Origin: a virus
Reading direction: 5' to 3' (one strand)
Virus record (IMG/VR): IMGVR_UViG_3300025941_000018
Span: 11,296-75,295 of that record
DNA length: 64,000 nt
The notes beneath the pieces were generated by a model. It searched no databases. It saw only the letters and a list, made by a program, of their open reading frames with translations, and was not told the DNA's origin. Below are positions 8,354-63,381 of the stretch, piece after piece. The number at the start of each line of letters is the position of its first letter. The first letter of the stretch is position 1. The position numbers and the translations under genes were made by a program.

Positions 8354-11300
8354 GGCCGCCGCCTAGTCCGCCGCCCAAGGTTGTCCCGCGTGATGCTGTG
8401 GCCAGCCTGGGAGTGCCTGAAGCCCCGCCAGGCCCACCCACAGCCGGTGCCACAGCCGCACGGCTTGCCGCAGGCGCTCCGCCGCCGCCTATAGATGCCA
8501 CACTAACCCCAACCGACTCCAAAGCGTCTTGATTCGCCCGCTGGAACGCTTTAGCGACGGCGACCTTGTCACTGCCATCCAATCCTTGAAGTTCCTGCTT
8601 GAAATTCACCCCTCGCTGCACCGTGTAATCTTGTAACTCCTGATTCGTCATCGGCCTGAAATCGTTGCCGATGGCGTAGCCCTTATTTGGATTGATGGAC
8701 GGTGGTCGATAGCCGCTTTCAAACACTGCCACGTAGGGTGCCTCTTCCAGTTGCGCTTTCACCGGCAGGGGATACGTGCCTGACAGCATCGTCTGGACGT
8801 AGTTCTGAACGGCATCAGGAGTGCCCACAGGGTCGCCCATGAAGTTGACTGCCTTGTGCCCGCTGGTTGGAAGCGCGACCAGGAAGTCCATGAATGTCGC
8901 CTGTCGAGGATCGAGATGCACGCCGACCGCCCGCATCTGTTCTTGCCAGCCAGGGAGCCCGGGGACCACGGGGCTGATATACGACGCCGCGAGCTTGGTC
9001 GGACTGAAGCTGCCTGCCTCCGTGAACGACTGCGCGGCACCGGTCAGGGTCTTGCCGGACATCAGCAGAGCCAGCGCCGATTCGGCCGCAACTTGGAAGC
9101 GCTCCATGGTAGTAGGAGGCGGGATTTTGCCAGGGGTAAGACCCTTCTTCTCTGCCTCTTGGTTCATGGCGGTCTGCTGCTGTGTGCGCCGCTCAATCAA
9201 ATCCTTTGCTGCCTGCGCGCCGCCGGCATAGGGAGCCAGGAAAGTGCCGACGCCAACCGTCGTGCTCAGTCGGTAAACATGGTTGTCGCCCAGGTTGATC
9301 TCGATGGTTCCCCATTTGTGGCCTGCCTTCTCAGCCAAGTCACGTTCAGCACGATCCATCGGTGGCCGGCCAAAATATTTCATCAGGTTGTTGAACACGG
9401 CCCAAACTGCGATTGCGCCAAAAGCGGTGCCAAGCAAGGCTTGAAAACGGCGCTGCCAAACGTCCTCCTCGGTGGTGAAATAAGGCGACGGTTCAGCCCC
9501 GCGTGGCCGCATGTTAGCCATCGCGTACAGCGGCGTGTTCATAAACGCCCAGTTGATGCCGGTGCCGATGGCATTCGAGAACTGGGTAAAGAACCCCGGC
9601 AGCCCGGCGCCGCGCAACATGCTTTGCGCGTACTTCAGCGGCACGGTAACCAGCGCGCCCGGGCCAGTCTTCACCGGTTCCTGCCATGCGGACAGCCGTT
9701 TGAGCAGGTCGGCGCGCTTCTGGAACTCATCGGCGGGCAAATGGGCCATCCGAATCTCGTCATACATGCGGCTGAGAACGAGCGCCGATGCCCGCTCGAC
9801 CAGTTCAGCCTCAGTCAGCGTCTCGCCAGCGGCTGCCGCTATCCTGCGAGCATCGGCCAGGGCGGCATCTCGCTTCGCCGGCAGTCCCTTGAACACCCTG
9901 TCGCGAATCACTAATCGGTCAGCCAGCAGAAAGCCCTTCTGGATGAGGCTCGAATCGACAAGGTTGGACATTTCAGTCATCTCGACCGCCGTACCCTGCC
10001 AGGCATCCATGGCGCGGATGAAGTGCAAAGACCACTTCACGAGTCCCAGGAAGCGCAGTGCCCCGGCCTGAGCAGTCTTGCCTTGGGCATCCAATTCCTT
10101 AGCCTTGAGTTCCATCCGCTCGAAAGCCTGAACTCCGGACATCAAACGCTCGACGTTTCGGGTCTCGCCGCGATTGAGCAATCCTGCCCTGAACGCCAGC
10201 AGCCCTGGCTTAATGGCATCCACGGTCTCTTTGAACCCTTGGACCATCGTGCGCCCGAGGTCTCCCCATGCCTGCCCGATGGACTCTTCGCCGCGCTCCA
10301 CCCTTGCTGCCACGAATCCCGCAGCCCGACTCGGAACGTGCATCAAGAACTGTGTTGCCATGTGGAGTGGTAGCCGGAAGCCGAACCCGGTCTTGAGCAG
10401 CAGATTGGCAATCTCGAACTCGTTGGTCGCCGCAGCGATGTTCTGCCGTGTAGCCCAGAACTTCGACCATTTGATGGGCTGCGTGAGCCGTGCCCAGCGT
10501 GCCGCTAATTCCCGGTTGGCTGCCCCGATCTTCCCTTCCATGGTCACCATGCGCTCACGGCGGGCCTTCTCGACGTCGCCACCAGCGTCTTTGATTTCTT
10601 CCGGGGTAGGTTCGGCCAGCCGCTGGGCTCGCTCGCTCAACTCCCGCATGATGCGGATCTCCGCTGGGCTGGGTGGCGTGTAGCCGTTGGCCTTCGCAAT
10701 CTCGGCGATGATGGTCGTCGGATCGGCACCACCAGCATTGAACATTCGATGCAGTTTCTCGACCACATTGCGCCTGCGCATCTGTTTGCGCTCCTGTGGC
10801 GTCAGAGCGTCGATAGCCTGCTTTCCAGCCGCTGCCAGCGCTTTGGTCATCGGGAGCTTAAACGCCGCCTGGAACATCGCCTTGACCTTGTCCACCTGCG
10901 CTGGGTCGATGCTCAGATCGCGGACCATGTGGTCGGCAAACCTCTCAGCCAGCTCGTCCTGGCGGTAAAACGGGGTTTCCAGCACTTGCTTGGTCAAACT
11001 GCTGACATTTGGCACCAACCGCTGAACCACGCCCTTAGCCGCCACATTGTCAATCATGGGCGTGTCGATGCCACCGGCGCGGATGATGCCTTCCAGCTTG
11101 CCTTTGGCCTCATCAAGCCGCTTGGCGCGCGCCTCCGGGGTGATCGGCGCCACGTCGAAGGTGCGATCTGCACCCTTCAGGAAGCTTCGGGTAATCCGTT
11201 CTTCCGCTGCCTGCAGCCGTTCGGCCAGGTAGGTCCAGGTCACGGCTTCCAGATACGTGCGGGTTGGCTCATCTAAGGCGTTGAACTTCTCGGCCGTAGC

Positions 11301-60278: not shown

Positions 60279-60785
60279 ATGAGCCTCTACAACATTCTGT
60301 TCGGTAAAAACCAATACGCCGATCTTCTGCTGGCCACACTTGGACTAAAGCAATCAGATTGCGGTCGGTTTCGTGACTGCTACCCGTCGGAGGACGGCAC
60401 AAAAATAATTGTCCATACACGGAACGGCGGCGGGAACCGTGAGGAGTACCAAAGCGTGATTGATGAGCTTGCCGATCATCCTTGCTATGTGAGCGACAAT
60501 GACGACGATTTCGATTGCACCTACGCGGACATTATTTTCCGCGTGCCCGATGGAGCTGAGGCGTTTGTCAAAAGCGTGGCTGATGCGACCGACACAACTC
60601 CGCCAGCCGAACGCTGGAAAAAACTCCTGGCCGACATGCAATCTGGAAAGGACAGCGCCGTGGTGTCTCGTGCTATGGATGTTGGCAAACAAATATTCAG
60701 CGCGATTGATGCTGCGGCACCCACAGCAGAAGTAAAAACACCAGAGGGTTCGGTGATCATATCCTCCATTGAATCCAAGCCGTGA
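60279..60785 (+). CDS. Conserved phage hypothetical protein
   Basis: SLYN.LFG, RFRD, TRNGGGNR, DDDFDCTYA; upstream TTGACA-17-TAAAAC. Confidence 0.75.
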   Translation: MSLYNILFGKNQYADLLLATLGLKQSDCGRFRDCYPSEDGTKIIVHTRNGGGNREEYQSVIDELADHPCYVSDNDDDFDCTYADIIFRVPDGAEAFVKSVADATDTTPPAERWKKLLADMQSGKDSAVVSRAMDVGKQIFSAIDAAAPTAEVKTPEGSVIISSIESKP

Positions 60786-61348
60786 AGCCCAAGGTCACCG
60801 CCGCTCACACAATGAATTCTCTTTCCGAACTCCTGTTTCCTTTGCTTCGCGGCATGGTAACCGATCCGCAGGGACTCAAGATTGTCGAACAACCGCCGGT
60901 CAATCGCATGGCGCTGATCGCTGTCACGCCAGCCGCTGCGGATTATCGCATCCTCTGCGGGACCGGAGGCCGCACCATCCGCGCGCTGTCGGCCCTCACG
61001 TCGCTCCTAGGCCATGCGCTCGGCACGCCGGCCAGGCTCGAATTGCGGGAGAACTTTCAGTATAACCAGGCACCCAACGTCCCGTTCATCCAAAACGACG
61101 ACTTCGACAAGCGGGCCTGCATTGACAACATCAAACAGTTCTGCGCCGTGCTGTTCGACCGCGAAGTGCCGATTACGTGGAACCCGAATGCGCCAGGGGT
61201 ACTCGAGGTTTGGATCGACGCAGACCTTGACGACGCTAAGGAAGTCTCGACGGTGTTTGCGCTCGGAGAAAGCTTCTACCCATACGGCTATCGGCAGGGG
61301 ACTATGATCAAAATCAAGACCCTCAAGAAGTCGCTCAAACGAAAATGA
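60782..61348 (+). CDS. KH-domain (KhpA-like) RNA-binding protein
   Basis: MVTDP..L.I, D...LCGTGGRTIRAL..L. Confidence 0.7.
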   Translation: MKPKVTAAHTMNSLSELLFPLLRGMVTDPQGLKIVEQPPVNRMALIAVTPAAADYRILCGTGGRTIRALSALTSLLGHALGTPARLELRENFQYNQAPNVPFIQNDDFDKRACIDNIKQFCAVLFDREVPITWNPNAPGVLEVWIDADLDDAKEVSTVFALGESFYPYGYRQGTMIKIKTLKKSLKRK

Positions 61349-61623
61349 AACCAAAACCCATCATCATCGCGCTCACCGGCTCTCTCAGTCAGGTTCAGAA
61401 AAAGGAACTCTCGGATTCTGGCTACATTGTGATCATGGCAGAGCGGCCAGAGGACGTGCGGTTGATTAAACCCAGTTCGCTTGGGTTCGACGCCGACATG
61501 CTGTCCATGGCCGCGCTCGGAGCCATTATGGGCAACGAGTCGAGTGCTGAGAGATCCGCTTTCGTGCGACTGCTCTTTGCCGCGCTGAAGGATGAACAGG
61601 TCAAAAACGAAAATACCAAATGA
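61345..61623 (+). CDS. Hypothetical protein
   Basis: Coupled ORF. Confidence 0.6.
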   Translation: MKPKPIIIALTGSLSQVQKKELSDSGYIVIMAERPEDVRLIKPSSLGFDADMLSMAALGAIMGNESSAERSAFVRLLFAALKDEQVKNENTK

Positions 61624-62057
61624 GCCGTGACGAAATCATCTCCAAGTTTCCAAGAGCCACAGAGGACTTTATTCGACTCAACGCCACAGACGTTGACCAT
61701 CGAGATCAAGGGCATCGGGAAAGTTCCATCATTCAAAACGGGCAAGCGGGCGTTCGGCTGGCTGGACAAAAAGACCAAGAGGATAATGGCCCGACCGATA
61801 ACCCAGCCAGAGCACCGTATCTGGATGCAAAAAGCACTGCTGCTTATCGAGTCGAAATTACGCTCCGATTTTCAGATCGGAGACGCATCGACTCAGACGG
61901 TTGCGTCTCTACGATCTTTGATGTGCTTACTACCGTCCGACGATTGCTGGTCCGTGATCCCAGAGCACTCCGTAAGCTGCGAACTGTGCGAACCTGGAAG
62001 CGAAGGGGCGACGATCAGGATAACCCGGATACTGTGAATGAAGCGGTGCCATTTTAG
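61620..62057 (+). CDS. RusA-like overlapping ORF A (carries central DRRRxDxD..FDxL motif)
   Basis: ATGA-coupled start; VEITLRFSDRRRIDSDGCVSTIFDVLT. Confidence 0.6.
   Translation: MSRDEIISKFPRATEDFIRLNATDVDHRDQGHRESSIIQNGQAGVRLAGQKDQEDNGPTDNPARAPYLDAKSTAAYRVEITLRFSDRRRIDSDGCVSTIFDVLTTVRRLLVRDPRALRKLRTVRTWKRRGDDQDNPDTVNEAVPF
61627..62037 (+). CDS. RusA-like overlapping ORF B (carries N-terminal PS and C-terminal DD motifs)
   Basis: TIEI.G.VPS.K; LPSDDCW...GATIRIT. Confidence 0.6.
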   Translation: MTKSSPSFQEPQRTLFDSTPQTLTIEIKGIGKVPSFKTGKRAFGWLDKKTKRIMARPITQPEHRIWMQKALLLIESKLRSDFQIGDASTQTVASLRSLMCLLPSDDCWSVIPEHSVSCELCEPGSEGATIRITRIL

Positions 62058-62095
62058 TTATTGACAAAAACCCCAGCGGTGCGGATTATTTATGA

Positions 62096-62659
62096 ATGCA
62101 AAAAATCAATATGCGGTTCAGCTCGGAAGACTTGGCGGAAGCCGTGCAACCAAAGCTCAAAAAGAAGCGGCAAGGAGGAACGGTAAAATGGGTGGCAGGC
62201 CAAAAGCGAAAAAGCCTGTTCGACCGATTCACCGAAAAAATAACCCCGGCAGAAAATAGTTGCTGGTTATGGCAAGCCAATATCCTGCCAAACAGTTATG
62301 GGACATTTACAGCCTTTCAAAAAACCCAATACGCACACCGATTCGCTTACGAATTGTTCAGGGCAGAGATACCAAAAGGGCTGACCTTAGATCACAGATG
62401 CCGCACTCGGCATTGCGTAAACCCATTTCATTTGTTTCCGGAGACCCGGGGAAACAACGTAATAATCGGAGATACCATCGCCGCAAGGAATGCGGCAAAA
62501 ACTCATTGCCCAAAAGGGCATCCATACAGTGATGAAAACACTTACAGGCCCAAACGCGGAGGCAGAATGTGCAATGAGTGCCGAAGGATTCGAGATAGAG
62601 CAAAGAGCCAGAGCGAATCAGAATTGAAATCTACAGGACTGAATAAAATTCCGTTTTGA
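62096..62659 (+). CDS. HNH endonuclease
   Basis: CWLW..YG.F..AHRFAY..LDHRCR...CVNP.HL; THCPKGH; promoter TTGACA-17-GATTAT. Confidence 0.9.
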   Translation: MQKINMRFSSEDLAEAVQPKLKKKRQGGTVKWVAGQKRKSLFDRFTEKITPAENSCWLWQANILPNSYGTFTAFQKTQYAHRFAYELFRAEIPKGLTLDHRCRTRHCVNPFHLFPETRGNNVIIGDTIAARNAAKTHCPKGHPYSDENTYRPKRGGRMCNECRRIRDRAKSQSESELKSTGLNKIPF

Positions 62660-63381
62660 CCATGAAAGCCATCACCGCAACGCAGACCGTCATCGAGAAG
62701 CCGATCCTTTTCAGCGGCCCGATGATCAACGCGATTCTGGAAGGCAGGAAAAGTCAAACCCGCCGCGTCATTAATCCGCAGCCAATCATCGACGACAGCC
62801 TCCTCGAAGGCGGCACTTCTTCCGAATACGGCGTCCATGTGGGCGAGCGTCGCAGGAACCACTTAATTTGGACGGGCAAGCGGGGATGTCATACCACGTT
62901 CGGCCAAGGGCTGAAGTGGATGGCAGAGCGCAGCCCATACGGCGGAGTCTCAGATAGGCTTTGGGTGCGGGAAACTTTTGGGTATGCCGACGAGAGCGAC
63001 GGAAAACAGGTAGTCTATCGCGCCGACTCAGGTCCCGTTCACGAAGCCACAACCAAATGGAAACCGTCAATCTTCATGCCCCGATGGGCATCGCGCCTCA
63101 CCTTGGAAATTGTCAGCGTGAGAGTTGAGCGGTTGAAGGACATAAGCGAGGAAGATGCGATAGCTGAGGCCATCGAAGGCCGATGGCACCCAAAAGACCC
63201 GAAGTGCTGGACTTGGAAGGACTATGGAAGATCGGTGAGATTCAATGAGGACATTTTTCACTACGGTTCTGCGGTGACTCCTATTTCTACTTTCGAATCA
63301 CTCTGGAATTCTATAAACGGAAAGAAGCATCCTTGGAACTCTAACCCGTTCGTTTGGGCCATCACGTTCCGACGGCTATGA
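62656..63381 (+). CDS. ASCH/PUA-like conserved phage protein
   Basis: PILFS.PM..AILEGRK.QTRR, LWVRET, WKPSIFMPRWASRL.LEI, NP.VW. Confidence 0.85.
   Translation: MTMKAITATQTVIEKPILFSGPMINAILEGRKSQTRRVINPQPIIDDSLLEGGTSSEYGVHVGERRRNHLIWTGKRGCHTTFGQGLKWMAERSPYGGVSDRLWVRETFGYADESDGKQVVYRADSGPVHEATTKWKPSIFMPRWASRLTLEIVSVRVERLKDISEEDAIAEAIEGRWHPKDPKCWTWKDYGRSVRFNEDIFHYGSAVTPISTFESLWNSINGKKHPWNSNPFVWAITFRRL

Follow-up and report, generated by a model that had tools for sequence, protein, structure and literature searches.

The 64,000-nucleotide stretch of viral DNA analysed here (the window; positions 11,296 to 75,295 of the IMG/VR record IMGVR_UViG_3300025941_000018) is part of a 75,295-base soil phage record, the likely source of which is a rhizosphere metagenome run. 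It contains a compact locus of ~440 bp at which two open reading frames (ORFs), here called ORF A and ORF B, overlap fully on the same strand. ORF B is in the +1 frame relative to ORF A and 411 nt are common to both. The structural elements of the Holliday-junction resolvase RusA are divided between these two frames. A sequence-only reading of this DNA had already described the pair, and the overlap, the motifs and the coordinates that it gave, including the DD at 61939-61944 and the ORF A block from 61875 (the first D of DRRR), agree with the ORF list and the translations.

ORF B, whose N-terminal region reads TLTIEIKGIGKVPSFKTGK and whose C-terminal region reads LPSDDCW...GATIRITRIL, holds the first and last parts of the fold, and ORF A holds the middle in a block that reads YRVEITLRFSDRRRIDSDGCVSTIFDVLT (Table 1). 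Taken in order, ORF A consists of a two-helix N-terminal element, a disordered linker, the block of strand 2, DxD motif and helix 2, a disordered tail and a C-terminal Val-Pro-Phe (VPF). In every locus of the family described below, the block is conserved in frame A, the -1 frame, as HP.FRVTV.L..SD.RRRD.DG..ST..DCL..A..RL. The RusA elements fall in two frames at 35/35 loci, and no single polypeptide carries all of them.

Table 1. Features of the ORF A/ORF B locus, in window coordinates
Feature	Position	Strand	Description
Upstream 92-aa ORF	61345-61623	+	TGA stop at 61621..61623
ORF A	61620..62057	+	145 aa, ATG start
N-terminal peptide of ORF A, MSRDEIISKFPRATEDFIRLNA	61620..61685	+	AlphaFold2 pLDDT 91-93
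ORF B	61627..62037	+	136 aa, GTG start; RusA-like scaffold without strand 2 and the DxD motif
Strand 1 and VPSFKTGK motif	61690..61746	+	Frame B; RusA profile positions ~7-25
Helix 1, residues 61-81, PEHRIWMQKALLLIESKLRSD	61807..61869	+	Frame B; AlphaFold2 pLDDT ~93; aligns to RusA helix 1 (hhalign); frame-B coding signature at IESKLRS
Doubly constrained zone	61821..61871	+	Frame A LDAKSTAAYRVEITLRF (loop and strand 2) on the bases of the second half of helix 1, frame B
Zone selected in frame A only, SDRRRIDSDGCVSTIFD	61872..61922	+	Asp91 and Asp93 of ORF A, corresponding to RusA D70 and D72
Helix 2, ORF A residues 92-112	61893..61955	+	Frame A; end overlaps LLPSDD of B
Asp105-Asp106 (DD), invariant	61939..61944	+	Frame B; corresponds to RusA D90/D91
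Strands 3-4, CWSVIPEHSVSCELCEPGSEGATIRITRIL	61945..62034	+	Frame B
C-terminal Val-Pro-Phe and stop of ORF A	62046..62057	+	Past the stop of B

Homology to canonical RusA

The likeness to RusA had been noted in the sequence-only reading, and it holds at the level of sequence profiles. Against canonical RusA relatives, hhalign gave the ORF A alignment a probability of 96.2% (E 2.3e-9) over strand 2, the DxD motif and helix 2, and the ORF B alignment a probability of 87.9% (E 3.2e-6), with a gap of 18 columns in B that falls exactly at strand 2 and the DxD motif, where A matches. We also built a local hidden Markov model (HMM) from 72 canonical RusA relatives of L045, a more distant relative of the locus that encodes an ordinary single-frame RusA and scores 28.9 bits against Pfam RusA (PF05866; gathering threshold 22.8 bits). 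This model matched the N-terminal part of B at profile positions ~7-55, the middle of A at ~55-90 and, weakly, the C-terminal part of B at ~89-123. Profile-level homology to RusA spans the whole fold only when A and B are combined. PHROG 34, a RusA-like family, was matched by 8 of the 32 A-type proteins, and a Pfam search with A-type proteins (n=32) returned no relevant family.

Compared with RusA of E. coli DLP12 (PDB 1Q8R, PF05866), the locus has the same order of elements, namely strand 1, PS.K/N, helix 1, strand 2, RR.D.D, helix 2, DD and strands 3-4, and it has a similar setting, in a phage replication/recombination region beside an HNH endonuclease. The metal site of RusA is formed by D70, D72 and D91 (PMC1636454). 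Equivalents of the acidic residues D70, D72 and D90/91 of RusA and its single-frame phage relatives such as L045 are all present in the window, as Asp91 and Asp93 of ORF A and Asp105/Asp106 of ORF B. Both the Asp of A that matches D70 and the DD of B are invariant across 34 loci, whereas the position equivalent to D72 has a pairwise identity of 0.78 over the same loci. In contrast to RusA, however, the elements here lie in two overlapping frames, each with its own start, and ~14 codons are read twice; ORF A has in addition an N-terminal element, a long linker and a tail; and neither ORF reaches the Pfam threshold. A further difference concerns the Asn of the canonical DLDN motif. This residue is invariant in the aligned RusA relatives and is replaced by an invariant Gly (D.DG) in 34/34 split loci (Gly94 of ORF A in the window, 61899-61901); the D and G of the frame-A block have a pairwise identity of 1.00 over 34 loci.

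L045 itself lies on a viral contig, where positions 1486-1857 encode the GNVPSLKN motif and helix 1 known from B and also the RRHDLDN...MDAL block known from A. L045 is a useful outgroup for dating the split.

Conservation and selection in both frames

Relatives of the locus were gathered through an alignment of B, which gave eight viral and seven metagenome loci, and through a broader alignment, which gave two genome and 28 viral loci. The combined set comprises 35 distinct sequences (the window and 34 others) from many metagenomes, at ~25-80% identity. Whether both frames stay open with the same motif split in relatives had been put forward as a check on the sequence-only reading, and they do so in 34/34 of the other distinct loci fetched. 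Homologues of B are full-length, and a 14-member profile retrieved at least 417 representative clusters, 316 of them at E <= 1e-10. By comparison, only 5 A-type proteins, one of them from this record, were found in a collection of 5.8 billion proteins; gene callers choose B nearly always. Given that neither Pfam nor PHROGs has a name for the B family and that so few frame-A proteins are in the database, the putative resolvase of these phages is effectively invisible to annotation. The locus had no blastn match among 50,697 phage records, a single-protein scan of viral contigs with B found no match, and a B profile had only chance-level matches among PDB sequences.

Indel errors, a second point raised for checking, were sought in independent assemblies. 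In Logan, the likely source run yields a 43.5-kb contig that is identical to the window over 61300-62300 at a depth of 19.6, and short contigs from three other samples, covering 61619-61797, 61878-62028 and 61935-62127, show no difference and no gap. The comparison was made on contigs, and 61810-61877 is covered by the likely source run alone. The motif split is real and far beyond what chance would produce.

To examine selection in each frame, we aligned 11 close loci by codon. Variation peaks at the third position of B, except over ~61867-61905, where it peaks at the second position of B and hence the third of A. Within this frame-A stretch, the proportion of synonymous pairs among codon pairs that differ is 0.38-0.54 for frame A versus 0.04-0.23 for frame B, and outside it the figures are 0.2-0.66 for frame B versus 0.00-0.13 for frame A. 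Together, the codon patterns place the switch to frame A at ~61873-61910. Amino-acid identity among 34 loci is higher in B over 61693-61825 and 61930-62029, higher in A over 61873-61918 and mixed over 61828-61870. The middle of the fold had been assigned to frame A from the window alone, and frame A is indeed selected there, but the stretch under selection in A only is shorter than proposed (~61873-61920) and is flanked by zones in which both frames are constrained.

In the mixed zone, the peptide IESQLRS has a clear frame-B coding signature and sits in the confidently modelled helix 61-81 of B. The Leu of its SQL is encoded by TTA or TTG in 29/31 loci, versus ~0.2 of Leu codons genome-wide, and since frame A needs xTT at this point for Ile or Val, both frames are constrained. 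When HMM matches are converted to bases, the strand 2 block in frame A begins, by our arithmetic, 43 nt (14 codons plus 1) upstream of the position that would be collinear in a single frame in 8/9 loci, and 40 nt upstream in the ninth. The same bases therefore encode, in frame B, the second half of helix 1 and, in frame A, the loop and strand 2. We conclude that both frames are under purifying selection over complementary segments and that this selection is dual over ~14 codons.

Frame A also has its own beginning. At each locus it contains an ATG or GTG start, which in most loci lies 4-37 nt upstream of the start of B; the latter is an ATG ahead of strand 1 in 32/35 distinct loci. Between the start of B and strand 2, 33 of the 34 loci show no stop in frame A, against a total of 88 predicted by synonymous reshuffling of B, and the sole frame-A stop in the 34 loci sits upstream of A's own start. 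In addition, the Phe of the PSFK motif of B is encoded by TTC in 35/35 loci, TTT being the codon that would give TAA in frame A. The coupled ATG of ORF A and its openness, which had been taken from the outset to argue against decay, thus both turn out to be selected features. Strong Shine-Dalgarno sites precede the A start in several loci (31% of A starts, compared with 12.5% for B and 22% for internal positions picked at random).

In the window, the ATG of ORF A and the TGA of the upstream 92-aa ORF overlap as ATGA, and the GTG of ORF B follows 4 nt after this TGA. The same overlap of the upstream stop with the A start, as ATGA or GTGA, is found at 12 loci. The upstream stop, the A start and the B start are thereby packed within ~10 nt (ATGAnnnnGTG or ATG; 61620-61629 in the window and the equivalent site at 12 loci), so that one termination-reinitiation site could feed both frames and set their ratio.

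The N-terminal peptide of ORF A comes in at least two conserved types. Type 1, s.DEL..(F/Y)P.As..FI..N, is found in the window and in L016, L021, L024 and L028, and type 2, MP.WT.EEL..Y..R (MPxWTxEEL), in L019, L020, L033, L037, L043 and L044. In the type-2 codons that lie outside the overlap with B, selection acts at the amino-acid level, with the W invariant and the T varying at the third position only. An Atlas look-up with the N-terminal 28 residues of A gave scores of <=0.81 and no usable match. We also considered whether this N-terminus is the tail of the upstream gene and rejected the idea, because in each locus a stop lies upstream and a start codon is present at this point.

At its other end, past the stop of B, ORF A finishes with [VILP]-P-F-stop in 10/10 members of the clade to which the window belongs. 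Across the clade, every one of the four Pro codons, the two Phe codons and the three stop codons occurs in this ending. Conservation of the ending with fully synonymous variation points to selection on the peptide, and hence to a frame A that is read to its own stop. The V/I/L-Pro-Phe ending is confined to the clade, at the same position in L001-L015, and members outside lack it. The C-terminal tip of the bacterial single-stranded DNA-binding protein (SSB), DDDIPF in E. coli, is a docking site for a large number of proteins of repair and replication. The V/I/L-Pro-Phe-COOH of ORF A resembles this tip and, by analogy, the tail might recruit the resolvase to SSB partners or compete with SSB.

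Proposed assembly of A and B and its alternatives

The AlphaFold2 model of ORF B, built from 114 sequences, has a mean predicted local distance difference test score (pLDDT) of 82.7. It comprises a strand at residues 22-28, an inserted hairpin at 41-58, the long helix 61-81, a low-confidence loop at 82-100, a segment at 101-126 that is confident but largely unpaired and a final strand at 127-133. When the model was compared with 48,161 chains, the top match was E. coli RusA (1q8r_A), although a weak one (Z 4.3, root-mean-square deviation 3.3 A, 80 residues aligned; next match Z 3.2), and Foldseek found no PDB match for it at E <= 0.001. In the model of ORF A, residues 1-20 form two short helices with pLDDT above 90, residues 28-70 lie at ~50, and residues 71-110, at 73-87, form an extended segment and a helix (92-112), followed by a disordered tail.

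Each frame is open and conserved and has a start, purifying selection acts on the two in complementary segments, and jointly they cover the RusA profile. On balance we are inclined to believe that A and B are two proteins that come together as one RusA-like resolvase and share its active site; of the three readings first offered for the locus, two complementing polypeptides is the best supported. Our model of how this might work is as follows. Ribosomes reaching one loading site would make two proteins, A from the ATG at the upstream stop and B from a start 7 nt later. B would serve as the scaffold, providing strand 1, helix 1, the DD and strands 3-4, with a short unconstrained loop where RusA has strand 2 and the catalytic DxD loop. 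A would supply the catalytic hairpin on a flexible linker, and its block would insert into the B scaffold, such that Asp91 and Asp93 of A plus Asp105/106 of B form the metal-binding site. The A+B unit would presumably dimerise in the manner of RusA. That both proteins are produced, bind each other and cut junctions as a complex is our inference.

Several observations weigh against this proposal. Neither ORF of the window matches Pfam RusA (PF05866) at E up to 10, and no match was found for 21 B-type or 32 A-type proteins. The Asp matching D72 is missing in 4 loci (L007, L021, L032 and L033), although it is absent from some Pfam-positive canonical relatives too. The start of B mostly lacks a Shine-Dalgarno site of its own, and the first ~70 residues of ORF A are mostly an unselected linker, which is unusual for a protein. 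The loci are interrelated, so the counts given above are not independent trials. It is also hard to envisage how the split layout evolved from a single-frame gene. Finally, co-folding of A with B, which had been suggested as a check, gave weak support: residues 18-136 of B with residues 64-114 of A gave a median interaction prediction score from aligned errors (ipSAE) of 0.54, versus 0.00 for the best of 3 controls, with a contact agreement between runs of >=72% and a partner pLDDT of >=59. The mark against which this is judged was reached by 58/80 solved complexes and by 2/110 mismatched pairs, and the score falls in its weak band: only 7 of the 80 solved complexes, and both passing mismatches, reached the mark with an ipSAE at 0.60 or under.

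In a competing account, A and B are two real overlapping proteins that do not rebuild RusA. B would then be a non-catalytic RusA derivative, for example a junction binder, and A a separate small protein that has kept a RusA remnant and makes other contacts through its N-terminal element and VPF tail. That both frames are selected, that B folds confidently without A while A alone is mostly disordered, and that the co-fold is weak would all be accommodated by this account. We nevertheless consider it unlikely, since the part that B lacks is exactly the part that A has, at the same place in the profile, and since residues of one RusA metal site (PMC1636454) are invariant on both ORFs, the Asp matching D70 on one and the DD on the other. 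Furthermore, the confident yet unpaired segment 101-126 in the predicted structure of B is what would be expected if a partner strand were missing.

A different explanation keeps the single enzyme and changes the way in which it is translated. Under programmed recoding, which had also been proposed at the start, a -1 shift from B to A before strand 2 and a +1 shift back after helix 2 would produce one RusA chain, perhaps beside unshifted products. The conserved pieces do follow in B-A-B order as in one RusA, with offsets of -1 and then +1, a T-TTN tetramer stands at the B-to-A boundary in 9/11 close relatives, and a review names RusA/RuvC among the phage genes reported with frameshifts (PMC10885494). 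Against this, neither boundary has a slippery heptamer or a conserved shift site across loci, the position of the A stop after helix 2 varies freely, and frame A, which has a start codon of its own, is already kept open over the 45-95 codons that precede any shift site. The selected VPF beyond the stop of B indicates that frame A is read to its end rather than left by a +1 shift. Given that the second half of helix 1 and strand 2 are encoded by the same ~14 constrained codons, both readings of which are used, a single -1-shifted chain could hold only one of the two. For these reasons recoding fits the locus worse than two proteins do, and we regard it as distinctly improbable, possibly the source of a minor additional product. 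As for compensating indels or sequencing errors in an ordinary RusA gene, a -1 ... +1 pattern would look alike in a single sequence. However, the same layout recurs in 35 distinct loci at 25-80% identity from many metagenomes, the coding signature switches frame, frame A is open where 88 stops are expected, and contigs from independent assembly of the likely source run and from three other samples are identical. Because both frames are conserved and the other assemblies have no indels, decay, the last of the readings first offered, and assembly error can be discarded with near certainty. One candidate slip site, the A-run CAAAAAG at 61828-61834, was tried as the position of a -1 slip and rejected, as it is not conserved in relatives.

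Known systems, implications and gene neighbourhood

The embedded spanin genes Rz/Rz1 of phage lambda encode two proteins from the same DNA in different frames of one strand, which act as a complex. Rz and Rz1 are, however, unrelated proteins, one overprinted on the other, whereas at the present locus the pieces in the two frames share homology with a single ancestral fold and keep its order. Programmed frameshifting, as in dnaX, prfB and the tail assembly chaperones (PMC10885494), is similar in that one locus gives rise to products from two frames. In contrast to those systems, the locus has no conserved slippery site, and its second frame possesses a start codon and is open from that point onwards. 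Frameshifting would take two shifts here and would require part of the sequence to be read twice. Two reviews of overlapping genes (PMC8227390, PMC6195259) describe overprinting as laying a wholly new protein, read from the second frame, over an old gene, and the products of such gene pairs as functionally unrelated. The locus resembles viral overprinting in its long same-strand overlap, in having one frame largely disordered where the other is conserved and in its alternating selection; it differs in that the catalytic core found in its second frame belongs to the same enzyme family. In the literature that we searched, we found no description of a resolvase, or of any enzyme fold, split between overlapping frames.

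Our preferred reading of the locus, for which we claim modest confidence, is that one ancestral fold has been laid down in its original order in two obligately overlapping genes, with the catalytic hairpin in one frame and the scaffold in the other, that ~14 codons serve as both the end of helix 1 and strand 2, that the two chains rebuild RusA with a shared active site, and that the arrangement is present in hundreds of phage lineages and has been overlooked by gene callers. If the products do assemble, this would be one protein fold split between two frames of the same DNA, its homologous pieces still in ancestral order. It would mean that a small nuclease fold can be supplied in two parts, a scaffold and a hairpin that inserts into it, and how ~14 codons came to serve two consecutive structural elements would be an evolutionary puzzle.

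The gene order around the locus is a 188-aa ORF, the 92-aa ORF, the ORF A/B locus and then an HNH endonuclease. The 188-aa ORF (60782-61348) has a weak KH-domain match (PF13083, KhpA/KhpB; E 0.001, 19.3 bits, under the cut-off of 32.1). The HNH endonuclease (62096-62659) matches PF13392 at 28.1 bits and phrog_826 at E 7.8e-48. Its start is overlapped in another frame by a 55-aa ORF (62092-62259), and directly 3' of it, with a 4-nt overlap, lies a gene for a 241-aa protein of PHROG 874 (62656-63381).

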